59,606 bases of DNA from Bacilli bacterium (GCA_024680795.1 JAILBR010000063.1:1-59606), one strand, 5' to 3'. Positions 43,866 through 59,606 are shown, counted from the first letter of the stretch. Numbers and translations are program-made. The notes: a model not told the origin generated them from the letters alone.

Positions 43866-46800
43866 CTATCTATTGTGGCTGATTAATGCACTGATGAAGT
43901 CCGCACGGGATAGAGGCTTATAGAAGTGATAACCTTGCATCATCATATTCTCATCGAAGTCACGTAAAATCGTGAATTGAGCGCTGTTTTCAACACCAAC
44001 GACTGAAACACCGATGCCGACTTCTTTCGCGTTAAAGACGATATCTTTAACTGCGTTAAATCTCGTGCCATCTGTATCGACCTTATAAATGAGGTCTCTA
44101 GCGATCTTGACTTCCTTAAATCCGAGTTCTTTAAGTTTTTCAACACCGATATATCGGCCGGTATATCTATCGACCGAGAACATGATGTGTGCACTACTAA
44201 GTTGTTGTGACATCTTTTGAATCTCATCGATATGGCTTGGAATAATCTCTTCTGGAATTTCAAATGATAGGAAGTTATTCGGGAATTTATAAGTATCATT
44301 AAGTTTGACGACACCTTGTAATAAGTTCAGGTCTTTTAAGTAGGTACTATCGACGTTAATTGCGATACGTTCAAGATTATTAATTTTGAATACACTATTT
44401 CCATATTCTTTATACATGTTACCGATGAAGTTGATAATCGCTTCGGTAATGAGGTTAGTCTTGCCTTCTTGCTCAGCGATACGAGAGATTTCTTCTGCGT
44501 TAAACATCGCGTTAGAATAGACGTTATTGATACGTAACAAGATTTCAGCTCCAAAGATCTTCTTATCTTTAGCCTTAACGATAGGTTGAAGATTAACACT
44601 AGAGAAGCTACCGGAGAATTCTTGTTCGATAACAGAAATGATGAATTCACGCTTAGAAGCACTTCTAGAAATCTTATGGTCATAGAAGTAAATGAAGTCT
44701 TTACCTCTTTCATGCTCGCCATGATGATAGAAGTCATTAACGTGCTTCATAAAGTCTTCGGCGTTCGCATAACCACTTGGCCATCTAAGTGGCAAATAAG
44801 TGAGCTTTAAAATGTCCTCGTTAGTGCCATCATCTAATAACTGTTTCTTTGAAAGTTCATAAATCTTTTCGCAAGTATTGATAACGTCAACGTGACCAAC
44901 ATTATGTAATAATAAGGCGATGCATTCGTTGTTATATGCATATAATTCGTCTGTGCCTAATTCATCTTTTAAGTTTCTTAAGAAACTTCTAATCGCGAAT
45001 AATGTGCCTTCACTACCTTGTTTTTCTAATAATGTTTCAATATTATCAATCGCTAATAAGAGGACATAGCCACGACCATTAACGTAATAGGAGTTACGGA
45101 TATTTTGATATAAGGCAAGATAAGAATTGATTAATAAGTCTTTATCGAATAAGTCACCGTTTAAATCACCTTGAGTTAGTCTTTCCACTAAAACAGAACG
45201 GATGCGACTCTTATGCTCATTTAAGGTTAAAGAGGCTTCATAATTGGCTTTACGATGGGTGAATTCTTTCTTTTTAAAAGTATGCATTGGACAGTCGCTA
45301 CAAGGCTTTTCTAATCCAAATAAGGCTTTATAACATAATTCCCCTTCTTTTAAGGATGGGAAGACAGTTTTTAAGTCTTTAGAGAAATACTTAAGTTCAT
45401 AGCTCTTATCATCGACTTTATATAAAGAGTAATCGGTTAAAGACATTAAATATTCGTTTTCATTACGATATTCTTCAATCGATTTATTCTTCTTAGTTAA
45501 TTCGAAATAATGTTTAACTCTTAAACAGATGATAAATAGTGATTCTCTAATATATGAATCGAGAATCAAATCTTTGTTATTTCTATTAAAGAAATAAATG
45601 ACTGCATCAATGTTATTTTCAATGCCGCGATAGACATAATAGAAGCCACTGCTGATACCATATAAATCTAAATCACGTCCAATATAGATGGAAGCATGTA
45701 ATCTCTTAGAGAAGAAATAAGAAGAATCAAAATCGGTAGCCTGGGCTAAAGAGCGAACAAAGTTACCATCCACCGCTTTTCCCTTAAATAGTTTAGAACT
45801 TTGGTTAGATAATAATTGAGTGTAAATACCAAGTTCATCATTATGAAAAATGATGCCGATATCATCGATATCGAGATAGTTGCCAAGATCGGTAAATAAA
45901 TCAGCGATCATCTTTTGGTCTTTAGCTTTTTGACCATAATCGTAAGTCAATTCATCGAGTTGATCTAATAAAGAAGACATGTAGTTAACATTCATCGCAT
46001 CAGAAAGCATTAAGCTCTTACCAGCGTTCTTCTTGATACGTTTTGGCATATAGAAGTTAACAACTTTGCCTTGTCTTTTCGCATATCTTAAGTCACTTAA
46101 TAATTCATCAACATCACTATAAGGGTAAGCGACAATCGCATATTTAGCGGAGATATATCTTAATCCTTCAAAGTCACGGATTGTTAAGCTGGAGTCACGG
46201 ATAACAGATATAATCTGTTCTTCCACTCTTGATAGAGAATCAATGACTGGTAAATAAATGAGTAAGGAGTTAATTTTCTCACGGTAAGCGAATAGCACTC
46301 CAGTATAATCACCAAATAAATCAGTGAAAACTTTGACTAAATATTTCTTATCGTTTTCATTTAAGGTTAATAAATCGACCGAGAAACTAACATCCACCAA
46401 AACATTACGGTAGCTTTGTGAAAGCATGATGATGTTTGGAAGTTCTTTTTCAAAAGATTCAAAAGTGACGATATTTAAATCTCGATCGACATATTGAAGT
46501 TTTAAATTGGAATAATCTGGCTTAGTAGTGATGATATAAGCACAATCGAATTTAGACTGTAAAACATCGATCTTATCGTTTAAATCATCGATTTCGTTAA
46601 CACCAGTTTTTGGATATTTATAAAATTTATAACTACCACTTAAGAAGCTATCATAGTTCTTTCTAGTGATAGTAAATAAAGAGTTATATTGGCTAAAATA
46701 TAGTCTTCTATATAAGTAGATGGAAACGATTACATAGGCAATCGCTAAAACTCCAGTAAAGACAAAGTATAAGATATAGAATACGCTTAATCCAGTCGAA

Positions 46801-46916
46801 ACATAACAAATCGCCATGATGATAGAAAGGATTAAATCGAAAGATAAAATCGAGACAGGAATAATAACAGTTTGTAACAAACTTTGTCTAATCGATACTT
46901 CTTTTTTATTCATCAT
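43866..46916 (-). CDS. Membrane-bound multidomain sensor: 2 TM, degenerate GGDEF-like, GAF-like, Cys-rich PAS-like, degenerate GGDEF, degenerate EAL
   Basis: LQPIV...GAEILLR, INVDS, FEIPE, VDRYTG (in place of DDFGTG), VVGVEN (in place of EGVE), MQGYHFYKP; CYKALFGLEKPCSDCP; the SD GGAGG supports the start at 46916. Confidence 0.8.
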   Translation of the reverse strand: MMNKKEVSIRQSLLQTVIIPVSILSFDLILSIIMAICYVSTGLSVFYILYFVFTGVLAIAYVIVSIYLYRRLYFSQYNSLFTITRKNYDSFLSGSYKFYKYPKTGVNEIDDLNDKIDVLQSKFDCAYIITTKPDYSNLKLQYVDRDLNIVTFESFEKELPNIIMLSQSYRNVLVDVSFSVDLLTLNENDKKYLVKVFTDLFGDYTGVLFAYREKINSLLIYLPVIDSLSRVEEQIISVIRDSSLTIRDFEGLRYISAKYAIVAYPYSDVDELLSDLRYAKRQGKVVNFYMPKRIKKNAGKSLMLSDAMNVNYMSSLLDQLDELTYDYGQKAKDQKMIADLFTDLGNYLDIDDIGIIFHNDELGIYTQLLSNQSSKLFKGKAVDGNFVRSLAQATDFDSSYFFSKRLHASIYIGRDLDLYGISSGFYYVYRGIENNIDAVIYFFNRNNKDLILDSYIRESLFIICLRVKHYFELTKKNKSIEEYRNENEYLMSLTDYSLYKVDDKSYELKYFSKDLKTVFPSLKEGELCYKALFGLEKPCSDCPMHTFKKKEFTHRKANYEASLTLNEHKSRIRSVLVERLTQGDLNGDLFDKDLLINSYLALYQNIRNSYYVNGRGYVLLLAIDNIETLLEKQGSEGTLFAIRSFLRNLKDELGTDELYAYNNECIALLLHNVGHVDVINTCEKIYELSKKQLLDDGTNEDILKLTYLPLRWPSGYANAEDFMKHVNDFYHHGEHERGKDFIYFYDHKISRSASKREFIISVIEQEFSGSFSSVNLQPIVKAKDKKIFGAEILLRINNVYSNAMFNAEEISRIAEQEGKTNLITEAIINFIGNMYKEYGNSVFKINNLERIAINVDSTYLKDLNLLQGVVKLNDTYKFPNNFLSFEIPEEIIPSHIDEIQKMSQQLSSAHIMFSVDRYTGRYIGVEKLKELGFKEVKIARDLIYKVDTDGTRFNAVKDIVFNAKEVGIGVSVVGVENSAQFTILRDFDENMMMQGYHFYKPLSRADFISALISHNR

Positions 46917-47652
46917 CGCTTCTACCTCCAAATAAGACGTCATTACGTCCGATATCGCCGATAGAGGAGACAACTGCCTTACCTAAAGATACATATTTGT
47001 CTAAGACAAATAAATATTTTTCGACATCCCAGCCTTTGCCTAATTCTTTTTCTACCACACGGATGGAAACGATTGGTACATCGTATAATTGTCCACTGAT
47101 CACCACTCCTCCAGTCGCGTTATCGACAGTCGCGGCTTTATCTAAATTGAGGAGTTCAAAATTATCTTTTATCTTTTCTAAGTTCGCGTTACTAAAATCA
47201 TTGCATGATAAGAAAGTGACAACTTTTGGGTTGATATAAGCACGTTTATTAAGTGCGTCACTTAAATAACCAATTAAGTCGTTTTGCACTTTATATTCAG
47301 GTCCAAAACCAGGAACTTGGCCTAAGACGACATTGTTATCGTTAATTTGATCAACATCAATATTAATCACTCGATTAGCGATCACAATATCTCCACTTTT
47401 TAATCCCTTGGTTAAAGAGACGCATCTTCCTACGACATAGGCTAAATCAATATGATAATGGTTAAAGATATAACTCGAAAGAGCAGAAGAAAGAATAGTT
47501 GTATAACAGCTATCAACGACAACAACTTCTTGGTTAAAGATAGTGCCGACGGAGATGACGTATTTTCTTAGTACCGTACTATCTTGACGGTTAGACATGA
47601 TGCTTTGAAAATATAAAACATCATCATGATTCGTACCAAAAATCGCAATCAC
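46906..47652 (-). CDS. MTA/SAH nucleosidase (PNP_UDP_1)-fold protein, probably catalytically inactive
   Basis: MIAIFG, LKSGDIVIA...IDVD...LGQVPG, DVPIVSIRVV match the MtnN layout; EME is DNA and SD is EK; GTG start overlaps the upstream TAG. Confidence 0.75.
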   Translation of the reverse strand: MIAIFGTNHDDVLYFQSIMSNRQDSTVLRKYVISVGTIFNQEVVVVDSCYTTILSSALSSYIFNHYHIDLAYVVGRCVSLTKGLKSGDIVIANRVINIDVDQINDNNVVLGQVPGFGPEYKVQNDLIGYLSDALNKRAYINPKVVTFLSCNDFSNANLEKIKDNFELLNLDKAATVDNATGGVVISGQLYDVPIVSIRVVEKELGKGWDVEKYLFVLDKYVSLGKAVVSSIGDIGRNDVLFGGRSDDE

Positions 47653-49199
47653 TATTGTCCCCTCTCTTTCTTTTCAAATTTGTTATTCTTTAAGAGTTCT
47701 TCAAATTCATTAAGTGGTAAAGGTTTGGAATAATAGAATCCTTGAATCGTATCGATATGCATTTTCTTTAAGATATCGACTTGTTCTTGACTATCAACAC
47801 CTTCGATGATGACTTCGATTTCATTTGTGTGACCTAATTCAGTTAAAAGTTTAACGATTGAACGAGTCTTCTCGTCTTCGACGAGTAAGTCAGAGAATGA
47901 TTTATCGATTTTAATCGCATCGAAAGGAATTTTTCTTAAGTTATCAATACCAGAATAACCAACACCAAAGTCATCCATCAAAACTCTAATACCGATATCT
48001 TTAAGTTTTTTAATGATGGAAATAGAGATAAATTGGTTAGCCTGACTGGTTGTTTCAGTAATTTCCACTTCCACGAGATGAGGTGGAACTTTATATTTAT
48101 CTAATAATTCTAAGACGTGATCAATAAAGCCAGTCGCGTAGAATTCATAAATAGAGAAGTTAACAGATACTGGGATAACTCTTCTACCTCTTTTAATCTC
48201 TTCTGATAAGTTCTTTAAAGCGAGTTCAAAAATATAGTTATCGATTAAAGAGATAAGACCAGCGGACTCAGCTTTGCCGATAAACATACCAGGAGTTAAT
48301 AAGCCATGTTTAGGAGAGTTCCATCTCGCTAAAGCTTCACAAGAGATGAACTTTCTCTCTATGAGAGAATATTTAGGTTGATAGTAGATGATAAATTCGT
48401 TGTTACGAAGGGCTTCTTCGATTTCATAGATATCATCTCTATTCGTTTCTTTTCTAAATGATTTATTGAAATATGTATAAGTTTCAAAGTTACTTTCAGC
48501 GACATTTCTAGCTAAGAAAGAGTCTTCAACCGCTCCCGTGATATTTTCGCCTTCAATGATTTCTTTAATGCCATAGAAAGGTTGAACATAAACTTTAAAG
48601 CTCTTCTCTTTCACGATTCGATAAACGTTACTAGAAATAGAATTGACGATTTCTGGAATTTTCTTCTCGTCATCACTAAATAGACAGAGCAAGAAAACTC
48701 CACGGTTAAAGCCATAGGCGTTATCCCTAGAAGAATAGGTACCTTTTCTTACGAAAAAGTCTTCTAAGAATAATGAAACGTTATAGTTAAGATTCATCAT
48801 CATATCACTATTAAAGCTATTAGAAGCAACCTTTAAACTGGTGCAGCTAAAGGCAATGATAAATTGTCTTCTCTTTTTAAGTCTTCTTTTTTTAGATAAA
48901 AATGAGACTCTAGTTTTAAATGCTTCAAGATTATAGAAAGTAGTTTTATGACCTAAGGTATAGCTATTTTCCATCTCTAATGTTTTAAAGAAACGACCTT
49001 GAGTGAAGAACTGTTTAAGAGACTCAGTTAAACCAATCGAAGAAGCAATAGCGAATATAATAATTAAAACTTGCCATAATTCATGACGTTCCGCCTTATT
49101 GTTAACAGAGATTAAAATAGCCGCAGTAAAAGATAACACTAAAGCGATAAAACAAATGGAAGCAAGAATTAAGTAGCGATATAAGGCTCTATTTTTCAT
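47652..49199 (-). CDS. Membrane-bound c-di-GMP phosphodiesterase (2 TM, degenerate GGDEF, intact EAL)
   Basis: YYQPK, EALARW, VSVNFS, EVEITET, MDDFGVGYS, KIDKSF, IEGVD, IQGFYYSKP. Confidence 0.92.
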   Translation of the reverse strand: MKNRALYRYLILASICFIALVLSFTAAILISVNNKAERHELWQVLIIIFAIASSIGLTESLKQFFTQGRFFKTLEMENSYTLGHKTTFYNLEAFKTRVSFLSKKRRLKKRRQFIIAFSCTSLKVASNSFNSDMMMNLNYNVSLFLEDFFVRKGTYSSRDNAYGFNRGVFLLCLFSDDEKKIPEIVNSISSNVYRIVKEKSFKVYVQPFYGIKEIIEGENITGAVEDSFLARNVAESNFETYTYFNKSFRKETNRDDIYEIEEALRNNEFIIYYQPKYSLIERKFISCEALARWNSPKHGLLTPGMFIGKAESAGLISLIDNYIFELALKNLSEEIKRGRRVIPVSVNFSIYEFYATGFIDHVLELLDKYKVPPHLVEVEITETTSQANQFISISIIKKLKDIGIRVLMDDFGVGYSGIDNLRKIPFDAIKIDKSFSDLLVEDEKTRSIVKLLTELGHTNEIEVIIEGVDSQEQVDILKKMHIDTIQGFYYSKPLPLNEFEELLKNNKFEKKERGQ

Positions 49200-50124
49200 T
49201 GTCTTTCTTCTCCTTTGATTTATTTAGCATCTCTTCTAATAACTCTTTCTTTAGACGTTCTCTATCTTTATTAGATATTTTATCTAATGATTTCACACTA
49301 CCCTTAGTTTCTGTCACTGGAGCTTCTTCTGCATCTTTTAAGGCTCTTAAGATATCAATAATCGAGGTAATAATTAGATAGGCAGCTGGGATAAGTAAGA
49401 AGATTAATAATCCAATTGGACTAGATAGAATCTTAAATACTTGTCCTAAAAATGGGGAATTAACTTTCACCACTCCTAAAAGTTGTTCGTAAGTAAGAAT
49501 TTGATATTGTTCTTTCTTACGATAGCTTTCTCCACCTTCTTCTCCTTCAGTGGTATTAATACCAGCAGTCACGAAATAATATTTTCCTTCGATTTGATGA
49601 ATTTCGAAAAGTCTATGGGTCATGACTTGGTTAGAGACAACTTCGCTCCAATTGTTTTGCCAATCAGGGTTATCACGTGGGCATACACTCGACCAACTTC
49701 TATTATTCATAAAGGTTAAGTCGATTTTCGCATTCGCTCCTCCATTACTATTGAAGCGATTAACGATATCTTCTTCTTTTTCTAGATAGGTGACGATTGC
49801 GGTGTTAACTGGATATTCAGGCTCCATAGAATCAGTTAAGACCACGAAACTACCGAATCCTAATCTAATTTGTTGGTTATAATGCTCTTTCGCATGCACC
49901 ATTCCATCGATTTGGCCAACTAAAACGATGACAAAGAAGACGCCAAAGATACCAGTTAAGATCCATTCGATAATCACTCTGGCCTTGCTCTTCTTCTTTT
50001 TCTTCTTTTTACCTGTTTCTTCAACATTTTCAGTAACCACTTCGGTTGGGGTTACTTCAGGATTAGGAAGAGATTCGTTATTATTTTGTTCTTCGGTTAT
50101 TTCAACTTTTTCTTCGTCGATCAT
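49189..50124 (-). CDS. sipW: SipW-type (S26B/Sec11-like) signal peptidase I
   Basis: TM, then FVVLTDSMEP (Ser), VMTHRL (His), GVVKVNSPFLG and a C-terminal TM (GLLIFLLIPA). Confidence 0.8.
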   Translation of the reverse strand: MIDEEKVEITEEQNNNESLPNPEVTPTEVVTENVEETGKKKKKKKSKARVIIEWILTGIFGVFFVIVLVGQIDGMVHAKEHYNQQIRLGFGSFVVLTDSMEPEYPVNTAIVTYLEKEEDIVNRFNSNGGANAKIDLTFMNNRSWSSVCPRDNPDWQNNWSEVVSNQVMTHRLFEIHQIEGKYYFVTAGINTTEGEEGGESYRKKEQYQILTYEQLLGVVKVNSPFLGQVFKILSSPIGLLIFLLIPAAYLIITSIIDILRALKDAEEAPVTETKGSVKSLDKISNKDRERLKKELLEEMLNKSKEKKDNEK

Positions 50125-52790
50125 AATTTAACAATCTTACCTCCTAACTCTTTTTTTATTTTCTTAGCGAGATTATAGTCGTCAAACACATGAGCGTCTT
50201 CTTTCATCTCACTAAAGTTATCTTTGGATACATAATATCCGCTTAAAGTCTTCACAATAAATCTGCCTGGAATTGGTTCTTCTTTGACCTTCTCCCTAGG
50301 TTTACGTTCTTTTTTAGTCGTCTCAGAGGCAGTTTTTTCCTCCTTCTCCATAGGAGAAGAATTCCCCTCTTTTTCTTCATTATCTTCTAAAACATCATCA
50401 TTAGAAGCGTTTACTTCTTCATTTATAGGTCCTTGTTCTTGAGATTGTTCATCATTAGATTCTTCTTGTTGAGGTTCATCATTTTTAACCCACATTTCGT
50501 TTTGTGGTTGTTCTTCCTCTGCCACTTCTTCTTGAGGATTATCTTCTTGAGTTGGAACTTCCTCTACTGGTTGTTCTTCCACTTTTTCTTCTTCAGGTTG
50601 AATTCCTTCCTCTACTGGTTGTTCTTCTTGAGGTTGAACGTCTTCGCCATTATTTTCTTCTATAACAGAATTTTCTTCTTGCGGTTTCTCTTGAGATGGT
50701 TCTTCATCAATATTTTCTTCTTGAGGTTGTTCTTCGGATAGAACTTCTTCTTCCACTGGTTGTTCTTGAATTTGTTCCTCACTTAAAACATCATTAGAAG
50801 CTTCTTCTTGTGCAGATTCCTCTTGTTGAGGTTGTCCATCGACTGGTTGCTCTTCTAGAGATGTTTCTTCTTCAGCTGATGTATCTTCTACTTGAGCATT
50901 TGATTCTTCATTCAAAGGCTCTTCTTGAACTTCAGAAGGTTGTTTTTCACCAATAGGAGATTCCTGAACTTCCTCTTGAGGCTCTTCTACTTCAGGAGCA
51001 GGTTGCTCTTCCTCTTGTTGAGGTTGTTCTTCCTTAGCTGGTTCTTCAGAAACGTTTTCTTCTTGAACTTGTTCATTTTCAGAAGGTTGTTCTTCTAAGA
51101 TAGACTCTTCTTGAGGTTCATTATTAACGCTTTCGATTTCTTTATTTTCTTCGACCTGTTCTTCTTTTTGAGGCTTGCTTAAAATAGGCTCATCTGGTTT
51201 ATTTTCTACTGGAGCTTCTTTCTTTTTACGGCCTCTCTTCTTTTCTTCTTTTGGAGCAACTTCTTCAGTTTTTTCAACTGGTTCATTTATAACTGGTTCA
51301 ACTGGAAGAGGTTGTTCTTCTGACTGATTTTGAGGTTGTTCTTGAGGAGCAGGCTCTTCAACAGGTTTTTGTTTTTCTTTTTGAACTTTATATTTTTGCT
51401 TTTTCGCTTCTTTATCTTTTTTGGCTTGCTCTTTAACGATTTGTTTTTCGCCTTTCGCAGCAGCGATAAGTTCTTGTCTCTTCTTTTCAATACGAGCAAG
51501 TTCTTCGTTAGCGATAGCCATCAAACGTTTTTCTTCTTCAGCGCGATCTTCTTCAGCAAACACTTTCAAAAGTTCTTGGACATATTTTTCCCAGTTGTCG
51601 TTTTCTCTGATCTTTCTTCTAAGAAGTTTTTCAATCTCTTGGAGTTCCTTCTTACGAGTGGCTTTTAATTTATATTCACCTTGATAATATAGTTTTTCAT
51701 ATTTATCAGGGTGTAAAGGCAAGCCTAAATGACCGAGATTATCTAAATATTTACGGTATTCTTCATCTACTCGGACAAATTCTAAAGTACCGGTTAAAGG
51801 TTCACCGAAAGTAAATATCTCATCATCAATACTGGTCATCACTTTTGGTTTATGAGTTTTAGAGACAGTTTTGATGTCTTTCATTTCTGTTTCTGTCTTT
51901 AAAGACAGATATTCAGTTAAGAATAGATAATTTAATTCCGCTAAATCTTCGTCTGTAAAGTTTTTATAAGCTTCATCTACTTTATAATTCACACCTAAAG
52001 AAGAGAATCTTTCGATAAATAATAAAGTTTTATAACAGTGATGATATTTAGGGTTCTTTCTGATGATGTTAGTTTGTAAGATTGGTTTACGAACATCTCT
52101 TTCGTTTTTGAGTTTCTTCATGAATGGAGAATTATAGTAATAGAAAATATATTCTCTCATCTTTAAGATACGGTCGATATAGCCTTGGCTTTTAATCGCA
52201 ATATCATCATCAGTTTCTTTTTTAACTCTGATTTTGGTTTCGATTTCTACTTCTTCTCCACCGACTTGAGTGTTGGTTTTTAAATACATCACTTCTTCCA
52301 TATGGAGAGGAATCATTCTTTGAATATATTCATATCTCTTTTCTACGAATAACACTAAACGTCTAATGAAAGTAGCGATAAATCTATTTTCATAAGTGTT
52401 CATATTATCTTCGTTAGAGTGAGATAAGATTTTAGAAGGGACAACATTATTTTGTTCGTCGACTTCTTTAATATATTGAGTGTGGCTTGCTAAATGTTGA
52501 ACGCTTTCCCCATCAATTTTTTTAGCAAGTTCAACAGGGACAACATTACTTTCTTGTTTAGTGACTTGTTTTGGGTTATTAACGATTTCACCAAGGTCAT
52601 ATAAACAATCTTCCACAACATCAATCCAAGATGAATCAAATAAGGAAGATTCATAACGATGGTAGCGTAAGAAAGAATTCTTTCCTTTTAAGAAAGAAAG
52701 GTAGATATCGTCAAAAGTTTTATCTTTATTCAAAGAAGAAACTTTATCGAGATATTTATAAAAAAGTTGTTTCTTAGTCGCTTTTGCCAT
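50121..52790 (-). CDS. DUF2357/McrC-N-like protein with coiled coil, long acidic disordered region and small C-terminal domain
   Basis: IVNNPK, VQHLASH, PSKIL..DNMNTYENRFIATFI, TNIIRKNPKY; lies directly downstream of the McrB-like gene. Confidence 0.65.
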   Translation of the reverse strand: MAKATKKQLFYKYLDKVSSLNKDKTFDDIYLSFLKGKNSFLRYHRYESSLFDSSWIDVVEDCLYDLGEIVNNPKQVTKQESNVVPVELAKKIDGESVQHLASHTQYIKEVDEQNNVVPSKILSHSNEDNMNTYENRFIATFIRRLVLFVEKRYEYIQRMIPLHMEEVMYLKTNTQVGGEEVEIETKIRVKKETDDDIAIKSQGYIDRILKMREYIFYYYNSPFMKKLKNERDVRKPILQTNIIRKNPKYHHCYKTLLFIERFSSLGVNYKVDEAYKNFTDEDLAELNYLFLTEYLSLKTETEMKDIKTVSKTHKPKVMTSIDDEIFTFGEPLTGTLEFVRVDEEYRKYLDNLGHLGLPLHPDKYEKLYYQGEYKLKATRKKELQEIEKLLRRKIRENDNWEKYVQELLKVFAEEDRAEEEKRLMAIANEELARIEKKRQELIAAAKGEKQIVKEQAKKDKEAKKQKYKVQKEKQKPVEEPAPQEQPQNQSEEQPLPVEPVINEPVEKTEEVAPKEEKKRGRKKKEAPVENKPDEPILSKPQKEEQVEENKEIESVNNEPQEESILEEQPSENEQVQEENVSEEPAKEEQPQQEEEQPAPEVEEPQEEVQESPIGEKQPSEVQEEPLNEESNAQVEDTSAEEETSLEEQPVDGQPQQEESAQEEASNDVLSEEQIQEQPVEEEVLSEEQPQEENIDEEPSQEKPQEENSVIEENNGEDVQPQEEQPVEEGIQPEEEKVEEQPVEEVPTQEDNPQEEVAEEEQPQNEMWVKNDEPQQEESNDEQSQEQGPINEEVNASNDDVLEDNEEKEGNSSPMEKEEKTASETTKKERKPREKVKEEPIPGRFIVKTLSGYYVSKDNFSEMKEDAHVFDDYNLAKKIKKELGGKIVKL
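50290..51370 (-). repeat. Low-complexity coding repeats (EEQPVEE/QPQEE)
   Basis: Recurrent (c)tactggttgttcttc and ttcttgaggttg units encoding Glu/Gln/Pro-rich repeats. Confidence 0.7.
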
Positions 52791-52804
52791 AAGTCACTTT
52801 CTAA

Positions 52805-54328
52805 CTAGTTATTCTTTAATAAGTTTTCAATATAAGAATGAGCCATATGGAAATTGCCTTTGCCATATAACTTATCTAAATATGTATCAAGTTCTTTTAA
52901 TTGGTCTTTTAAGAAGGCGATATTTAAGGATTCAAATTTCTTTAAAATCTTGTTAGTGAAAATGAAATCAAATCCATCACTTTCAGTACCACCACAAGCG
53001 ATAAATGTTGGGATGAAGTCATCTAATTGTTTTAAAATACGGTTACCAAAGGCCAATCTGAATTTCTTAATAACAAAGTTATCAAGGTCTTCAAATTTCT
53101 TAAGCATATCCGCGGAGATGCCATATTGCTTTTTAGCTTCTGCAAATAAGGAAACTAGTTGAGCGTAAGGAACACTGATTGGTTCAGTTTCTACCGCGTC
53201 AAATGGTCTTCCTTTATCATCGAAGAACAATGAGATAGCACGGTCATAAACCTTATCAGCGATGGTAAATGTTGAGTCATCGTTATTCGCTGTTCCGAAG
53301 AAGTAGACGTTTTGAGGAATTAATAACTTACCTTCTTTGAGGTGTTTTGGATCACTTGGGTCAATAGAAGGAATTAAGTCAATTGTCCAGTCTTCAAAGT
53401 CTCTTTTTTCCATGACGGATAAGAATTCAGCGAAATAATATTCAATACGGGCTAAGTTCATTTCATCGAGGACGATGATATCTAAGTCTTTACGGTAGGT
53501 AGTGACATATAACGCTTTTAAGAATTCAGATTCGTTGAATTTCTTAGTGAATTCGTTATAGTAACCTAAAAGTTCACTTCTATCTTTCCATGATGGTTGG
53601 ACAGGAATGATTTCGCTATCAAATGAGAAGAATTTACCAAGGGCGTACGCTAAAGAAGTTTTACCAGTACCAGAGATACCTTCTAAGATGATGAGTTTTG
53701 AGGTTGCTAAGCCAGCGAATAATTGTCTAATAACATCAATACGGTAATATAGGCCTAATTTACTAGCAGCGTAGTTTCTAAAGCTATTACATAACTCTTC
53801 TAATGATAAACCCTCTTTAAACATGATCGCGGTATTCACGTCTTCATAAGCTTGGTCAACACGGGTAAGTTTTGGGAATCTAGAAGAGATTTGATCGATA
53901 ACTTCTTGATCTTCTTTTTGATAAGCACCTTCTTCAGGTTTTAAACCCATATAACCAGTCTTTAAGTTTAAGATTTTATCTTTTTCTTGAATGGCTTGAT
54001 ATAATTCGTAGTTAAGTCTTTCGACTTGATTTCTTAGTTCATCTTTATCGAGTTCTTTTCTGACAAATCTCACATATTTTCTTATTAATAAGAAAAGTCC
54101 GTATAAAATCGCACCAATTAAACCGATAAAGAAAAGTAAGAAGATAACCCAGAAGAACCATCCCCAGAAACCAAAAGTACCATTATAGGCGCCAAAAATG
54201 GAGTTGTAATTATCAAAATTGCCTGGCACTCTTTCCCAAGGTTTTACCCAAGCAGTATTAAGGAAAACACCGAGGTCTGTAAAGAAGGCCACAAGTAGTT
54301 CACGTAAGTAATTAAAGTATGCTTCCAT
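52805..54328 (-). CDS. McrB-like AAA+ GTPase/ATPase with N-terminal transmembrane anchor and coiled coil
   Basis: ILEGISGTGKT, IPVQPSWKD.SELLGYYN, LDEMNLARIEYYFAEFLS, FFGTANNDDST..IADKVYDRA; TM WGWFFWVIFLLFFIGLIGAILYGLFLLI. Confidence 0.88.
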   Translation of the reverse strand: MEAYFNYLRELLVAFFTDLGVFLNTAWVKPWERVPGNFDNYNSIFGAYNGTFGFWGWFFWVIFLLFFIGLIGAILYGLFLLIRKYVRFVRKELDKDELRNQVERLNYELYQAIQEKDKILNLKTGYMGLKPEEGAYQKEDQEVIDQISSRFPKLTRVDQAYEDVNTAIMFKEGLSLEELCNSFRNYAASKLGLYYRIDVIRQLFAGLATSKLIILEGISGTGKTSLAYALGKFFSFDSEIIPVQPSWKDRSELLGYYNEFTKKFNESEFLKALYVTTYRKDLDIIVLDEMNLARIEYYFAEFLSVMEKRDFEDWTIDLIPSIDPSDPKHLKEGKLLIPQNVYFFGTANNDDSTFTIADKVYDRAISLFFDDKGRPFDAVETEPISVPYAQLVSLFAEAKKQYGISADMLKKFEDLDNFVIKKFRLAFGNRILKQLDDFIPTFIACGGTESDGFDFIFTNKILKKFESLNIAFLKDQLKELDTYLDKLYGKGNFHMAHSYIENLLKNN

Positions 54329-54332
54329 AATT

Positions 54333-55448
54333 TTAAATCTCCATGTCTCTATAGATTCTAAAGCTTAATCCAGCTTTGAATCCTGCACCCATCACTTGAT
54401 TGACTGAATCTAAATCCCATCCTTCGATATATAAGGCGACACCGACTTTAGTTGGGGTATTAGCCTTAACTGGAAAAAAGAATTTGACATCGCTTTGTTT
54501 AAAGTCTTCTGGGATATAACGTTGTTCTTTAGCGATTTCCACTCCATTAGCAAGTGATTGTTCTAAGTTGAACCTCTTCACACCAGCTTCATGGCTAGCG
54601 TTGAAGACATTTGGTTCTCCTTCATATGTTGAATCTGCATCAAACGCTTCATCATATATGATTTTGCTACGGTCATTGACCTCACCATACACCACTTCGA
54701 ATTTTTCATCGTTTTTGTTGTAATGGTCATATTTATGATTGAAGGTGTTATCAAGAATTCCTCCTAATAGCACTTCTTCTTCATTATGATTTGGATCAAC
54801 GACTGCGTAATCGTAATTTCCTTCATCGTTTTCACAAAGTATAGAAAATCTCATCGCGTTAGGTAAGTTTGCTAATCTCTCTCTGATTTCTTCCTCTGTG
54901 TGAACGATAACATTTTCATTTTGCTCATGTCTTTTTATCTCGTCTTCACGCACTTCTTGCGCGTACGCGTTATTAAAAAGAGCATTTTGCTTGATGTATG
55001 TGGCGGATTCTTCTGTATCATCCGCTTTGATGGTCACATACACATTATCTTCACTAAAGAGATAGACTTCTTGATAAAAATATCCACCATGAGACTCGAC
55101 AAGTCGAGGGGTGCCATATTCGTCAAAAGGCACTAATGTGGTATAGGAGCTATCATAAAATATCGGTTCGTTATGGCCTTCGACATTTAACCAATTATTT
55201 TGGTACATAGTCGATACAGGAAAATAACGTTGTACTTCGTGTAATTCGTCGTATGATAACTCTTCTTTAAAAGAATCTAAATCTGTTGAGGTAGAAATGA
55301 GAAGTTCTCTATCACCATCAAGTCTAATATCAATAGCCTCGATAGCGAGCCTGTTACTTGCAGAATACCAAGCTAGAGAGACAGAAACTGCATTAAGCGC
55401 GATTAACCCTGTTAATAAACCAATAAGGATAATCTTGTTTGCTTTCAT
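54333..55448 (-). CDS. Secreted protein with SipW-class signal peptide (fibre subunit paralog 4)
   Basis: Signal ending VSLA|WY; FPVST, AMRFSI, VVYG, ALYIEGWD, terminal FKAGLSF. Confidence 0.7.
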   Translation of the reverse strand: MKANKIILIGLLTGLIALNAVSVSLAWYSASNRLAIEAIDIRLDGDRELLISTSTDLDSFKEELSYDELHEVQRYFPVSTMYQNNWLNVEGHNEPIFYDSSYTTLVPFDEYGTPRLVESHGGYFYQEVYLFSEDNVYVTIKADDTEESATYIKQNALFNNAYAQEVREDEIKRHEQNENVIVHTEEEIRERLANLPNAMRFSILCENDEGNYDYAVVDPNHNEEEVLLGGILDNTFNHKYDHYNKNDEKFEVVYGEVNDRSKIIYDEAFDADSTYEGEPNVFNASHEAGVKRFNLEQSLANGVEIAKEQRYIPEDFKQSDVKFFFPVKANTPTKVGVALYIEGWDLDSVNQVMGAGFKAGLSFRIYRDMEI

Positions 55449-55450
55449 TT

Positions 55451-56578
55451 CTAAACTTTGTTAATTTCAAATTGTAAACCGAGGTTGAAACTATATCCTG
55501 CCGCTTCATCGATCACGACATGATCCCAACCTTCTAAAAATATTGTTAATGTGGAATATCCAATCGCTATTTCACTATTGGCAGTGATTGTGACTGGCAT
55601 ACCACCAGAATAGCTATTACCATCATAATCTGGGAATACTGTTCTTTTTGTTTCGTATTCGGCTACTCCACGAATTACTGAATTCATATTGGCAGTGAAA
55701 ATATCTTTCAAGTGACGAGAACAGAACGTAGTTCTGCCGGTATCACCAGTGCCATTAACAGTACCATCATTTGGAGCGCTTGCTGGATCAACTGCATAGC
55801 CAGTATCACTATGTGTTAATGTGCCACTTGCAATTTCTCCATAAACATACTCTTTGCGAGTACTTGGATTGTAGTCATAAAATCCATCTCCGTTTAAGTC
55901 TAAAGGACCACAAACAGAAGTTTCGCCTGCAACTGCTTCATTTGAGCTAGGATTAAACAAATATCTCGTATCATTTGTTACATCATCAATAAATACACGT
56001 AGGGCTTTATCAATATCATGTCCTGAGGCTGCTGTTTCAGTTGAAGTAATCCATATCTCTTTTTGTTTAACAGGGCGTTCTTGATTATCTAGAACCCTAA
56101 ATGCAAATGGAAGTACTAAGTAGTTCTTAAGTGCAGCAGGATTCTTAACTCTATATTCTCCATCTTCTGTACTACATTCTGGGGCTTGATAAAGAGTTAA
56201 ATCATCATCACCACTTCTAGCTAAACTAGAAACAGGGGAAAGTTTATTAATAGCATAAGATGTGTTATCTAAATAGGCTCTAATCATGTCGCTGGTAAAA
56301 CCAGTAGCAGCACGATTCCAGACGATTTTATGGCCATCAACTGTTTGTTTGGTGAGATTAAATGTCGAGATTTCTTCATTAGTGAAGTATTCGTCATCAT
56401 CAACAAGACCAACTTCTAGTTGAACAGAACTACGAACTGCAGTTCCGGTAAAAGATAGTCTAACTGCTGAGTTATATGCGTACCAAGCAAGAGTCCCTGC
56501 GATGGAACCAACAAATCCAAGTAGCGTCAATGCAGTGGATCCAGCAACGAATAGATTAATCTTTTTAGATAGTCTCAT
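55451..56578 (-). CDS. Secreted protein with SipW-class signal peptide (paralog 3)
   Basis: GTLA|WYAYN; LSPVS, ALRVFI, GPLDLNGDG, IFLEGWD, FNLGLQF. Confidence 0.75.
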   Translation of the reverse strand: MRLSKKINLFVAGSTALTLLGFVGSIAGTLAWYAYNSAVRLSFTGTAVRSSVQLEVGLVDDDEYFTNEEISTFNLTKQTVDGHKIVWNRAATGFTSDMIRAYLDNTSYAINKLSPVSSLARSGDDDLTLYQAPECSTEDGEYRVKNPAALKNYLVLPFAFRVLDNQERPVKQKEIWITSTETAASGHDIDKALRVFIDDVTNDTRYLFNPSSNEAVAGETSVCGPLDLNGDGFYDYNPSTRKEYVYGEIASGTLTHSDTGYAVDPASAPNDGTVNGTGDTGRTTFCSRHLKDIFTANMNSVIRGVAEYETKRTVFPDYDGNSYSGGMPVTITANSEIAIGYSTLTIFLEGWDHVVIDEAAGYSFNLGLQFEINKV

Positions 56579-56650
56579 GCCAACCTCCTTTCCCCTGTAA
56601 TATTTATTATTAAGATATGAAAATTTTTGTTAGATTAAATGATGAAATAA

Positions 56651-58264
56651 TTATTTGTTGAAGGCATCTTTGCCGACATCAAATGTCATACCGAAACGGA
56701 AACCAGCTCCGTCAGTATTTTCTCCACTCCAAGTTGGAACTTCGATATTTCCAAATGAAGTAAATTTGTAATATGTTTTTTCATTATGAGCGAGGTTATT
56801 TCCGCTTGCTTTGATGTAGTTGCCATTAGCATCTTGTGTGTAGAACTTGCTAACATCTTTGCTACCAGCTGGTAACCAATTACCAAGAGCGTCTTGTAAT
56901 TCGGTTGTAACCACTTCTGCATTTTCACCAGCAGACTTTTTGACATAATATGTCTTGCCCGCTAATGCTTTATGATTTGCATCCATATCATCTACTGTAA
57001 CTGCAAGATAGTTATCACCATCTTTTATAAACATAGCAGAAACATCTTTTGCAAATTGAATATTTGCAGTTTCGTTCTTGACGATTCTTGTAAAGTACTT
57101 AGTGCCATCAACAGCGAGTTTTTCGACTTCTAAGTTGACCTTTTCATGATTCAAACCATTTAACTTATAAGTATCAGCCGGAATAATTGCACCAACATCT
57201 AACTTTAATGGTCTGTAATGCAATGAGAAGTAAGATTTCTCAGGATCAGCTTTGCCGGTAGCGGCTTCATAGTCGCCATGTCCATCTTCAATAAAGTATC
57301 CTTCCACATTTTGTGGTTGAACATCATAAGAAGGAATGTAGACAATTTCGTTTGATTCGATGGTTTGACTATCTAAATCCATATCCCATCCTTCAAACCA
57401 AAGTGTCACTGTAACTTTTGAGAAACCAGTTTCTGATGTATGGAATAAGACTTTATCCATATTGGAAACATCCCATTCGTCATAGTTATCGTTAACTCTT
57501 GTAGCAACTAAATCGCTTGCTTTTTTAGCGGTTTGGTATTCACCTTCATTACCATAGACAACTTGCTTGTCACGGTTAGCGTTACCTTCGTAACCACCTT
57601 TGCGATCAGCTTTTTCATCTCCATCTAAGTCTAAAGCGCCAAATAACTCTAAGTTTTCGACACCGTTCTTAGAAAGTAAGAGATTTTTGTTAACAGCACC
57701 ATCGCCTTCATCATCGATTGCTAAGTGAACTCTTAAGCCATCGATGATTGAGCCTGCGCCTGCTTCTACATAATTTTCTAATAAGAAGTTAGATAAGAAT
57801 ACAGGAACTGACACTTGTTTCAAACCATTGCCAGTATTTTCAACATCCATTGCTCTGAATTCAACAGTGTATTGGATGTAATCATGCTCTTTATCAGCTT
57901 GTTCATAAACTTCATCATAACTACCAAGATTAGTAGCATATGCGTTTTCTGAAGCATCTGGGTTTTTATAAGCTTGATCTGGTAATTTATCATTTGCTTC
58001 AAGTTTACCAAAGGTAACAGGAGTAATAAGGGCTTTATTCTCACGTTCGCCGATTAAATCAGCGGTGATGAGATCTCTAGTCCATTCGCCTCCTTGTTTT
58101 CTTATTTGTAAGATTCCAGTTTCAGCAACACCAGTGCCAATCACGGTTGTACTGACTCTAGTATTGTATTGGAACCAAGCAAGAGTTCCACTTAACGCCG
58201 CAACGAAAGATAAAGCTGCAGCAGTTGATAACGAAGAAACAACAAGTTTTTTGCTAATTTTCAT
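56651..58264 (-). CDS. Secreted protein with SipW-class signal peptide and repeat insert (paralog 2)
   Basis: SD AAAGGAG before MKISKK at 58264; GTLA|WFQYNT; DYIQYTV, GLRVHL, GALDLDGD, LWFEGWD, FRFGMTF. Confidence 0.78.
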   Translation of the reverse strand: MKISKKLVVSSLSTAAALSFVAALSGTLAWFQYNTRVSTTVIGTGVAETGILQIRKQGGEWTRDLITADLIGERENKALITPVTFGKLEANDKLPDQAYKNPDASENAYATNLGSYDEVYEQADKEHDYIQYTVEFRAMDVENTGNGLKQVSVPVFLSNFLLENYVEAGAGSIIDGLRVHLAIDDEGDGAVNKNLLLSKNGVENLELFGALDLDGDEKADRKGGYEGNANRDKQVVYGNEGEYQTAKKASDLVATRVNDNYDEWDVSNMDKVLFHTSETGFSKVTVTLWFEGWDMDLDSQTIESNEIVYIPSYDVQPQNVEGYFIEDGHGDYEAATGKADPEKSYFSLHYRPLKLDVGAIIPADTYKLNGLNHEKVNLEVEKLAVDGTKYFTRIVKNETANIQFAKDVSAMFIKDGDNYLAVTVDDMDANHKALAGKTYYVKKSAGENAEVVTTELQDALGNWLPAGSKDVSKFYTQDANGNYIKASGNNLAHNEKTYYKFTSFGNIEVPTWSGENTDGAGFRFGMTFDVGKDAFNK

Positions 58265-58342
58265 AACTTGTCTCCTTTCGGTTATGTATGTAGTATGTGC
58301 GCTATATAAATATAGCAATTAAATATTAATTATTAATGATGA

Positions 58343-59500
58343 TTAAGCTTTGAATGCATCAGAAGATACATTAAATGTCATACCTAATTGGAATTTTGCT
58401 CCATCAGTATTTAAGCCACTCCACATTGGGACGGTGACAGCGGCATTCTTTGTGTAATAATATGATTTACCATCAGCTTTTGATCCAGCTGTTAATGCAG
58501 CAGTTGCAGCATAACGATCTGCATATTTTCCTTCAACATCAGATTCAGCAGCTGGTTTTTCAGCAGTAATGTGTTGGATTTCTTTTTGTAAGTTAGTGCT
58601 GTTTTCCCAACCTTCTAACCAAACTGTAACAACTAATTTAGAAGCATGGTCAGCGGTTGTAGGTGTAGTGACGATCAATTTACCAGCATCATCTGTAATA
58701 ACACCATTTGCGTCAGGTGTATTGATTAATGATGATGGAGCAATTGTTGTTTGAGTACGTGTATCTGTACCATATGTGACAACATCATCTCTATTAGCAG
58801 ACCATTCATAACCACCAATTCTATCAGCGATGCCGTCATCATCGCAGTCTAATTTGCCGAATAATGGGAGAGCAGCTTTTGCTGTTTTAGAAATCAAATA
58901 ATTTCTATCAGGCGAGACCGAAGTAGAATCATCGTAACATGCGATGTGAACTCTTAAACCTTCAGCAATAACACCAGAATCGACATTGTTTAATACGAAG
59001 TCTGTTAAATAGACTTTTTCAGCAGTTAATGTGAATCCACCAGTTGCATTATCAACAGTTCTGCCTCTTAAGTAGACAGTATATTGAATGTAATCAGTTG
59101 CGACTGCAGCTTGATAAACATCTGCGTATGCGCCAGGAGCATGTCCTCCTCCAGCGTCTTTTGCTGCTCTATTTAGAGCAGAGTTTGGGTTTTTATAGGC
59201 AGTACCTGATAAAGCACTGGAAGCGGTTTGATTTGCACCAGTTTCCCATGTGATTGGGGTAATGTTTAAATCAGTAGCAATGCCTAATTCTGAGGATGTT
59301 AAATCTCTTTTAAATCCTGTAGTTGCGCTTGTAGCACTGATATCAAGAACACCAGTTTCAGCAACGTTCATGCCGATTAAAGATGTTCTAACAGCGGTAT
59401 TGTATTGGTACCACGCAACAGTACCGGAAATCGCGCCAACTAATGACACGCCTAATGCGGTTGACAAGGAAGAGATAATAATCTTTTTACTAATTTTCAT
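58343..59500 (-). CDS. Secreted protein with SipW-class signal peptide (paralog 1, Ala/Thr-rich)
   Basis: GTVA|WYQYNT; DYIQYTV, GLRVHI, GKLDCDDDG, VWLEGWE, FQLGMTF. Confidence 0.78.
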   Translation of the reverse strand: MKISKKIIISSLSTALGVSLVGAISGTVAWYQYNTAVRTSLIGMNVAETGVLDISATSATTGFKRDLTSSELGIATDLNITPITWETGANQTASSALSGTAYKNPNSALNRAAKDAGGGHAPGAYADVYQAAVATDYIQYTVYLRGRTVDNATGGFTLTAEKVYLTDFVLNNVDSGVIAEGLRVHIACYDDSTSVSPDRNYLISKTAKAALPLFGKLDCDDDGIADRIGGYEWSANRDDVVTYGTDTRTQTTIAPSSLINTPDANGVITDDAGKLIVTTPTTADHASKLVVTVWLEGWENSTNLQKEIQHITAEKPAAESDVEGKYADRYAATAALTAGSKADGKSYYYTKNAAVTVPMWSGLNTDGAKFQLGMTFNVSSDAFKA

Positions 59501-59606
59501 ATGCGTTTATTTCAACTCCTAATTTTAATTTTGCACTTATAGGTGCTTCTTCTTCGATACTGGATTGAGGATCCCATCCTTCAAGCCAGAAGACGATTGT
59601 GTACCT
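59490..59606 (-). CDS. C-terminal fragment of a fifth paralog (5'-truncated by window edge; absent from ORF track)
   Basis: Manual translation RYTIVFWLEGWDPQSSIEEEAPISAKLKLGVEINAYEN*; the stop overlaps the next start by 11 nt. Confidence 0.8.
   Translation of the reverse strand, partial: RYTIVFWLEGWDPQSSIEEEAPISAKLKLGVEINAYEN

Follow-up and report, generated by a model that had tools for sequence, protein, structure and literature searches.

The question raised by this locus is what a tandem array of pilin-like genes builds, and with which partner proteins. The array lies at the end of a 59,606-nucleotide stretch of DNA from a Bacilli bacterium (GCA_024680795.1 JAILBR010000063.1:1-59606). 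This stretch, hereafter the window, is one entire contig (C8) of a 1.33-Mb assembly of 72 contigs that is 74% complete, and the array is therefore cut by the assembly. Its four complete genes are called pil1 to pil4 here, and a truncated fifth open reading frame (ORF) at the contig end is called pil0. The array is part of an operon of the CoCoPALM type, a kind that is named but not characterised in the published passages and supplements searched. We judge it probable that pil1 to pil4 are exported structural proteins of this operon, most likely the subunits of a TasA-like surface fibre. The first-pass annotation had seen only the array, and overlooked the SipW-type signal peptidase, the membrane McrB-like GTPase and the McrC-like protein encoded directly downstream, which place it in this operon type.

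All features of the array and operon are on the minus strand, in the order pil0, pil1/2 class, pil3, pil4, McrB-like GTPase (the nucleoside triphosphatase, or NTPase, below), McrC-like DUF2357 protein, SipW-type peptidase and EAL-domain protein (Table 1). From the pil1/2-class gene to the EAL gene, this order is kept across 39 related loci from rumen and gut metagenome-assembled genomes, whose records are titled 'Bacilli', 'Erysipelotrichaceae', 'Candidatus Enterosoma' and 'Candidatus Enteromonas', the last two of which we take to be RF39-type genera. The NTPase gene directly follows the pil4-class gene in 35 of the 39 loci and the SipW gene is present in 26, the remaining loci ending earlier; wherever SipW was matched, the EAL gene comes next (26 of 26). 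A second sample comprised 20 hand-picked loci from different families: all 12 with a full-length membrane NTPase also contained genes of the pil family, DUF2357 and one or two SipW genes, whereas none of the 8 with divergent NTPase forms contained family genes. The NTPase was matched at E <= 1e-20 in 106 of the 300 genomes scored (301 were sampled from the class), and its close full-length form (E <= 1e-140) in about 73 of the 300, by our own count from the table. The linkage of pil, NTPase and McrC-like genes is conserved across many Bacilli families, and the genes are translationally coupled. The start of pil1 lies 8 nt inside pil0 (11 nt when the pil0 stop codon is counted), the SipW gene overlaps the McrC-like gene by 4 nt and the EAL gene overlaps the SipW gene by 11 nt; pil3 and pil4 are 2 nt apart, and pil4 and the NTPase gene 4 nt. 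In a consensus scan of positions 47000-59606, no convincing minus-strand terminator was found between the pil genes, and promoter-like sites were fewer (30) than in shuffled sequence (41).

The operon type was identified from the report of Bell et al. (eLife 2024; PMC11090510), the relevant passages of which describe an NxD-type clade of McrB GTPases whose members carry a fused FtsB-like domain with transmembrane and coiled-coil parts (the FtsB match there is weak, at 1.2) and a second D beside the NxD. CoCoPALM is named in passing and deferred to a later publication (PMC11090510). As far as those passages go, the window operon agrees in its McrB-like NTPase with an N-terminal membrane and coiled-coil-like part, its DUF2357 McrC homologue with a long helix, and its signal-peptidase gene. 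The idea of pilus assembly put forward by Bell et al. draws on a peptidase-like protein that resembles SipA (4N31, 8.1e-8, supplementary file 2; PMC11090510), whereas the window peptidase keeps its catalytic Ser and His and is therefore read as SipW-like, not as an inactive SipA-like chaperone. The other difference is that candidate subunits are identified here: no fibre subunits are named in the main-text passages and supplements searched, and TasA, SipW and camelysin do not occur as terms in the four supplementary files searched (PMC11090510). Among the literature matches listed, the name CoCoPALM in this sense was found only in Bell et al. and its preprint, and nothing on the system linked DUF2357/McrB with SipW/TasA, or TasA-like/SipW proteins with Mollicutes-like taxa.

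Judged by their sequences, pil1 to pil4 are true paralogues, homologous beyond chance. Pairwise BLASTP E values are 7e-61 for pil1-pil2, 2.8e-9 for pil1-pil3, 5e-8 for pil2-pil3 and 2e-8 for pil3-pil4; the pil1-pil4 match (3e-4) is confined to the first 72 residues. Identity between pil1 and pil2 is 38.6% by BLASTP over 360 columns and 44% in a MAFFT alignment, in which pil3 and pil4 are 27% and 21% identical to pil1. The alignment has 26 invariant columns, including AW, P, R, G-L-D, Y-G, E-G-W and F-x-x-G-x-x-F. Much of what the first-pass annotation had claimed for the array is borne out by these data. The colinear motif string that it listed, written as a regular expression, matches all four complete proteins, and the invariant columns reproduce its motifs; the closer kinship of the first two paralogues to each other than to the third and fourth agrees with both the E values and the identities; and the absence of LPxTG and of a C-terminal transmembrane segment was confirmed, with neither found in any of six proteins scanned (pil1 to pil4 included); pil1 to pil4 have one hydrophobic segment each, N-terminal only. 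Its count of at least five paralogues holds for the four complete genes and fails for the fifth ORF, which belongs to a separate class and shares a C-terminal motif only.

The family is large and divergent. A search with pil3 returned 182 homologues at E <= 1e-3, and no names or Pfam domains were found among the 120 of them listed; a profile of the four paralogues matched 1248 cluster representatives at E <= 1e-3, of which 166 remain at E <= 1e-30. Across 301 genomes the same profile gave only 10 carriers, a first pass too coarse for so divergent a family, and local hidden Markov models (HMMs) were therefore applied to fetched loci. In the 39-locus set, pil1/2-class genes occur in one or two copies per locus, and their insertion before the last strand ranges from none to hundreds of residues. 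In pil1 it is short, between the EGWE strand and the last strand; in pil2 it is about 170 aa. The major versus minor or tip subunits of the first-pass annotation fit this distribution, with the variable-copy, insertion-bearing pil1/2 class as shaft or adhesin and the single-copy pil3 and pil4 as minor subunits. Family-wide, insertions of widely differing size occur in the loop that joins the EGW strand to the last strand, with members of up to 968 aa. In this part of pil2 (56651-57350), the insertion contains several short K/G-x-Y-Y/F-like repeats and matched no family, the best scores being Lipocalin_10 and Invasin_D3 at E 0.11-0.55 only.

The window peptidase was matched by the NCBIfam SipW model (NF046067) at E 7.8e-9 and 35.4 bits (cut-off 190) and by TIGR02228, archaeal-type signal peptidase I, at E 2e-6 and 27.8 bits (cut-off 51.85). 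Both scores are under the cut-off because a long insertion leaves the C-terminal half matched alone. The catalytic Ser (S-M-x-P motif) is kept in all 26 aligned peptidase homologues and the His (T-H-R motif) in 25 of 26, a pair which we take to be that expected of the SipW type. With both motifs conserved, the enzyme would work like SipW, yet it is not an equivalog. The corresponding signal was counted in 142 of 150 listed family representatives, 8 being left out because they were already in the pil3 homologue set. Each of the 142 shows [AS]-W-[YFWV] among its first 60 residues, at a median position of 29, and the predicted cleavage site (T/S/A)-x-A↓W (the arrow marks the cut) has A at -1 in 141 of 142 and T/S/A at -3, likewise, in 141 of 142. 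Such a site follows the small-x-small rule of type I signal peptidases.

For comparison, 12 small Bacilli proteins of the camelysin/TasA kind were taken from loci with PF12389, a family carried by 7 of 151 Bacilli genomes; 9 of the 12 match PF12389 themselves. The N-termini of this set end in G-T-T-Y-A-W-F-S-E-like strings. Profile-profile alignment (hhalign) of the pil3 class with the set gave a probability of 88% and E 3.1e-6 over 49 columns, and the pil1/2 class gave 80% and E 1.4e-5. In two other genomes a PF12389 gene is found inside the same operon type or about 4 kb downstream of it. Together, these comparisons support N-termini of the SipW/TasA-camelysin type for pil1 to pil4. The TasA/SipW reading of the first-pass annotation thus gains a SipW-type gene, TasA-type N-termini and a cleavage motif, while the family thresholds are not reached and the donor-strand step stays conjectural. 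Two other kinds of pilin were considered and rejected. Sortase-dependent Gram-positive pilins do not fit proteins with neither LPxTG nor a C-terminal hydrophobic segment in a 74%-complete genome with no PF04203. In type IV pilins a short leader is cut ahead of the hydrophobic helix (G↓F/M...E5) and the helix is retained in the mature pilin; here a basic N-end and hydrophobic segment come first and the A↓W site, a motif read by eye, lies after that segment.

An AlphaFold2 model of pil3 from a 71-row alignment had a predicted local distance difference test score (pLDDT) of 84.7 and a predicted template modelling score (pTM) of 0.81, with residues 24-51 poorly modelled. In an exhaustive alignment to 48,161 chains, the TasA fibre (8aur_A) came first (Z 5.8, root-mean-square deviation (rmsd) 4.0, 142 residues, 15% identity), ahead of a Sulfolobus thread (Z 5.4), the CS17, CooA and CfaB pilins (Z 5.3-4.9) and Pyrobaculum bundling pili (Z 4.7). 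When the Foldseek top 1000 were realigned, the TasA fibre again came first (Z 5.9; rmsd 4.0-4.1 and 142-143 residues over the two comparisons), with CfaB at 5.1 and CanA at 4.5. Donor-strand fibre subunits recur among the top matches of both comparisons, and the model weakly suggests a beta-sandwich with fibre subunits as its best matches. The most conserved part of the pil3 class is the C-terminal region of EGWD plus last strand; residues 29-52 are second, at 3.08 bits versus 2.37 for the body. The N-terminal stretch of pil3 after the predicted cleavage site has no place in the monomer model (pLDDT < 50), and a conserved stretch left unplaced in this way would have the appearance expected of a donor strand. 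A homodimer model of mature pil1 (residues 30-385, two copies, 53-row alignment) had an interface score (ipSAE) of 0.00 in both runs, a value with no bearing on whether the subunits bind. When the pil3-class alignment was searched as a profile against the PDB, its one match was at chance level (E 0.041).

A scheme for the operon can be proposed from these data. The pil1 to pil4 proteins would be made with Sec-type signal peptides and cut by the operon's own SipW-type peptidase after (T/S/A)-x-A, leaving an aromatic N-terminus (W-Y/F). The freed and highly conserved N-terminal stretch of about 20 residues could then complete the beta-sandwich of a neighbouring subunit, by analogy with donor-strand complementation in TasA, and the pil proteins would polymerise in this manner. 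Variable copy number and a variable insertion before the last strand suggest pil1 and pil2 as the exposed shaft or adhesive part, and the single-copy, conserved pil3 and pil4 might be adaptor, initiator or terminator subunits. With its basic cytoplasmic tail and no cleavage motif, pil0 would remain membrane-bound and form the fibre base.

Several results weigh against a TasA-like fibre. TIGR04088, the SipW-dependent signal peptide model by which the first-pass annotation proposed to check its reading, gave no match at E <= 10 among 11 candidates from the genome. PF12389 (Peptidase_M73; gathering score 22.5 bits) had no match to the four pil proteins at E <= 1, and its best match in the whole genome, the N-terminus of pil1, reached 11.4 bits (E 0.2) against that cut-off of 22.5. 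The camelysin/TasA profile matches cover the signal peptide and first strand only (the N-terminal 50-60 columns), with the body excluded, and Atlas pointers to Peptidase_M73 (0.83 and 0.87) are under the level that counts. Searches of Pfam and NCBIfam gave no family for pil1 to pil4. On the structural side, Foldseek returned nothing from the PDB for the pil3 model at E <= 1e-3, and Z scores of 5.8-5.9 are below 8, in a range common for unrelated folds, so that the structural match is weak. Kinship of pil0 with pil1 to pil4 rests on one short motif and is not established. The pil family is known here from genes and models, and a role of the NTPase pair in assembly, anchoring or gating from the cytoplasmic side is a guess.

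These points leave room for a non-fibre alternative, which we regard as unlikely, if the most serious of those weighed: the pil proteins may be SipW-processed surface or secreted proteins, either adhesins or a coat on a wall-less cell, with pil0 tethering them to the membrane. The evidence for export and SipW processing fits it equally, the pil1/2-class insertions (in proteins of 196-968 aa, n=142) resemble the display of binding modules, and the weakness of the structural matches counts in its favour. The conserved but unplaced N-terminal stretch, however, is easier to explain by polymerisation, donor-strand pilins are enriched among the best structural matches, and the joint conservation of four to five co-linear classes is reminiscent of pilus operons.

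The fifth ORF bears on a second alternative. It had been reported to contain WLEGWD and KLGVEI, and both are seen in its 38-residue translation, which matches the four-paralogue profile at E 0.043. In 30 loci, the pil1/2-class gene is directly preceded by a conserved ORF of about 270 aa; the C-termini of these ORFs show 42-74% identity to the fragment, and an HMM of that class matches it at E 1.3e-15. From these sequences, the fifth ORF is a separate conserved class, pil0, and the first gene of the operon. N-termini of 17 orthologues show a very basic tail and one hydrophobic segment followed by a G-T-F-T-V strand; the class has no AW motif and ends in an EGW/Y-D motif and last strand. In hhalign, pil0 and the pil3 class align only over the EGW(D) motif and last strand (probability 6%), so that a motif is shared without kinship being established; the small camelysin-like proteins gave 42% (E 2.7e-4), over one central strand. 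The N-terminal features suggest that pil0 probably keeps an uncleaved membrane anchor.

If the hydrophobic segments of all the pil proteins were uncleaved, these would be anchored ectodomains of a fixed envelope complex with the NTPase, a machine and not a fibre, and SipW would have other substrates. The signal-anchor-like pil0 class with no cleavage motif fits this alternative, as do the membrane anchoring of the NTPase and its tight coupling to the pil genes. It is nevertheless improbable, given that the (T/S/A)-x-A↓W site is nearly invariant (141/142) and aligns with the cleavage region of camelysin/TasA-family proteins.

Two more relatives of the array proteins, one of the pil0 class and one of the pil4 class, were found on contig C17 (2257 bp) of the same genome, followed by what looks like the start of an NTPase frame (Table 1). 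The best BLAST matches of the second are pil4-class ORFs. This gene content indicates that the genome probably has a second, partly assembled copy of the system.

The NTPase has a hydrophobic segment at residues 50-86, a charged, heptad-like and coiled-coil-like stretch, Walker A GTGKT, Walker B DEMN and an NNDD signature. It scores 26.9 bits with Pfam AAA_5 (cut-off 22), E 1.5e-5 with NCBIfam McrB (below that family's cut-off) and E 6.9e-5 as a profile against McrB in the PDB (6hz4); no FtsB/DivIC family matched at E <= 1. Residues N348, N349, D350 and D351 are invariant and are aligned gap-free by HMMER to the McrB N-T-A-D, although NxD plus a second D can also be read. In the McrC-like protein, the N-terminal part of about 450 aa is conserved and consists of DUF2357 and a long helix. 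Residues 1-460 score 32.3 bits with Pfam DUF2357 (cut-off 23.3), which also matches 8 of 30 orthologues, and the model has a 90-residue helix at 370-459. Against a wide structure set, McrC chains reached Z 7.1 and 6.9, tied with many generic helical bundles, so that the match is not decisive; Foldseek with the N-domain model gave nothing from the PDB at E <= 1e-3, and a PDB profile search with the N-domain alignment gave nothing meaningful. In the C-terminal half (50121-51400, minus strand), about 380 aa of acidic low-complexity sequence, with many E, Q and P residues and internal repeats, are followed by a small conserved piece of about 59 aa, which one relative (L013) shares at 69% identity. 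Between loci, the McrC-like ORFs vary from about 380 to about 1170 aa.

Similarity to McrB and the presence of DUF2357 could also mean an ordinary restriction or defence module that happens to lie amid unrelated secreted-protein genes, with no link to the array, and divergent NTPase-DUF2357 pairs do occur apart from family genes, in 8 of the 20 hand-picked loci. We consider this highly improbable. The genes stand in the same order in 35 of 39 loci, the remaining four stopping short, and with all 12 full-length forms, in different families; they overlap or are spaced by 2-14 nt; the NTPase, with a mean column identity of 75% over 32 orthologues, is conserved much more strongly than the pil genes (33%); and a membrane segment stands where McrB has its DNA-binding domain. 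Nor was a nuclease domain recognised in the McrC-like protein by Pfam, Foldseek or structure comparison, which does not prove its absence. Three of the divergent loci (L048, L049 and L063) have NTPase-DUF2357-NTPase triplets, with no family genes or SipW nearby, and may be another branch of McrBC-like systems. Least credible of all is that the pil proteins are secreted enzymes (camelysin-like proteases) or solute-binding proteins: the nearest Pfam family, PF12389, is named as a metallopeptidase, but no enzyme or binding-protein family was matched (Pfam, NCBIfam, PDB profile search), the beta-sandwich model has fibre subunits as its best matches, and the invariant columns contain no His or Cys, nor any of the familiar metal-binding motifs of metalloproteases.

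Within the preferred reading of a surface fibre, a bolder proposal concerns the NTPase pair, and we hold it only tentatively, as rather doubtful. The McrB-like hexameric NTPase and McrC-like 'plug' may be a cytoplasmic, restriction-derived motor or gate that nucleates, anchors or drives a donor-strand fibre via pil0, with a possible contact between the very basic cytoplasmic tail of pil0 and the long acidic McrC-like tail. The operon would then encode a c-di-GMP-switched class of pilus machine and the main appendage of wall-less gut Bacilli.

Control by cyclic di-guanosine monophosphate (c-di-GMP) is suggested by relatives of the window. In all seven scanned (L006, L007, L008, L010, L028, L039 and L043), an RF01051 c-di-GMP-I riboswitch lies 90-180 nt upstream of pil0, with 44.7-64.4 bits against a gathering score of 35. 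In the window itself, and in C17, no Rfam family was found at gathering score; the operon leader falls outside the contig. With the riboswitch in relatives and an EAL gene at the operon end, expression of the operon is probably under c-di-GMP control. A second membrane EAL protein (43866-46973, minus strand; 1035 aa, E 1.3e-31) is encoded just downstream of the operon, and in relatives a longer EAL paralogue is also found upstream of it.

The organism's family appears to have no cell wall. PF00905 (penicillin-binding protein transpeptidase), PF01098 (FtsW/RodA; shape, elongation, division and sporulation family) and PF04203 (sortase) were not found in this 74%-complete genome, and PF00905 was likewise missing from all 6 near-complete genomes of the family, versus its presence in 20 of 41 genomes sampled from the order (this genome included). 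Repeated loss of peptidoglycan in these orders is, by its published account, the subject of PMC10868615. A fibre on a cell with no wall has to be anchored in the membrane, in keeping with an anchored pil0 and a partner machine bound to the membrane.

There are hints of transcription. Parts of pil2, pil3, pil4 and the NTPase gene are matched at 90% or more by contigs of two RNA libraries from a single study. The junction of pil4 and the NTPase gene (54107-54659) falls within one contig of a bovine gut RNA library (run X14), which has 18 differences in 553 bases and hints at co-transcription of the two genes in a close relative. For all these contigs, DNA carry-over is possible. As the public runs gave contigs only, ranking of the genes by depth was impossible.

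Table 1. Features of the operon in the window and of related genes on contig C17
Feature	Position	Strand	Length	Remarks
pil0, C-terminal 38 codons	59493..59606	-		First operon gene, cut by contig end; WLEGWD and KLGVEI, then two stops
pil1	58343..59500	-	385 aa	pil1/2 class; K-rich N-terminus, hydrophobic segment, predicted GTVA↓WYQY; family HMM E 7.8e-52
pil2	56651..58264	-	537 aa from ATG	pil1/2 class; ORF extends to TTG at 58318; family HMM E 4.7e-48
pil3	55451..56578	-	375 aa	Conserved single-copy class; predicted GTLA↓WYAY
pil4	54333..55448	-	371 aa	Conserved single-copy class; predicted SLA↓WYSA; family HMM E 8.6e-58
Membrane-anchored McrB-like AAA+ (AAA_5) NTPase	52805..54328	-	507 aa	
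McrC-like protein (DUF2357)	50121..52790	-	889 aa	
SipW-type (ER/archaeal-type) signal peptidase I	49189..50124	-	311 aa	Two hydrophobic segments and insertion
Membrane EAL-domain protein	47652..49199	-	515 aa	Last conserved operon gene; Pfam EAL E 4.9e-63
pil0-class gene	C17 46-966		307 aa	pil0 HMM E 8.8e-9
pil4-class gene	C17 974-2167		398 aa	HMM E 6.1e-37
Start of NTPase-like frame	C17 2186-2257 (last 72 bases)		24 codons	Cut by contig end; resemblance by eye

Among characterised systems, the TasA fibre of Bacillus subtilis (8aur) is one parallel: like the pil proteins, TasA has no LPxTG, and its beta-sandwich body is the best, if weak, structural match to the pil3 model. The pil proteins differ in being 1.5-2.5 times larger, in forming four to five classes versus two, and in lying outside PF12389 and TIGR04088. 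Their genes are also linked to a McrBC-derived NTPase pair and c-di-GMP elements, which are, to our knowledge, not in the B. subtilis tapA-sipW-tasA operon. Both systems have a dedicated SipW and a small-x-A site followed by an aromatic residue, as the TasA site is described in the relevant parts of PMC9245690. The same parts describe the donor-strand beta-sandwich subunits AbpA (7ueg), Sulfolobus thread (7pnb) and Pyrodictium CanA (7uii), with processing of the signal-peptidase-I type (PMC9245690). These archaeal TasA-like filaments are among the top structural matches of the pil3 model (Z 4.5-5.4), but no sequence similarity to them was detected, and their loci, as described there, have no dedicated peptidase or McrBC-like pair (PMC9245690).

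BsaA and BsaB of Clostridium perfringens (sipW-bsaA-bsaB-bsaC) offer a second parallel. According to the relevant parts of PMC11580942, BsaA is a SipW-dependent distant relative of TasA with several paralogues per operon, its polymerisation is modelled as exchange of a donor strand supplied by a disordered N-terminal stretch, and its oligomers are reported to be membrane-anchored. Like the pil genes, these are SipW-linked, distant TasA-type paralogues that share one operon. The BsaA oligomers are locked by isopeptide bonds, and the Bsa operon differs in encoding a von Willebrand A protein (PMC11580942). The Asn after the AWYxY motif of the pil family is not invariant (N or S). With Escherichia coli McrBC (6hz4, 6ut6), finally, the window shares the AAA_5 domain, its McrB-type motifs and the presence in the partner of DUF2357, the N-terminal domain of McrC; it differs in having a membrane segment and coiled-coil-like stretch in place of the DNA-binding domain of McrB, a partner with no recognised nuclease domain, and a chromosomal, conserved context amid genes for exported proteins.

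TasA-type fibres are thought to assemble outside the cell with no energy source. The joining of TasA-type proteins to a membrane-bound, McrBC-derived NTPase pair in many Bacilli families suggests another way of building or controlling a fibre and, if true, the motor proposal would add a new, nucleotide-driven class of pilus machine. What is new here for the named operon type is a set of candidate subunit classes: an anchor (pil0), a variable class (pil1/2) and two conserved classes (pil3 and pil4). The carriers are abundant, uncultured gut and rumen bacteria with small genomes and, since the organism's family appears to be wall-less, the system may be its main organ of adhesion or biofilm formation.

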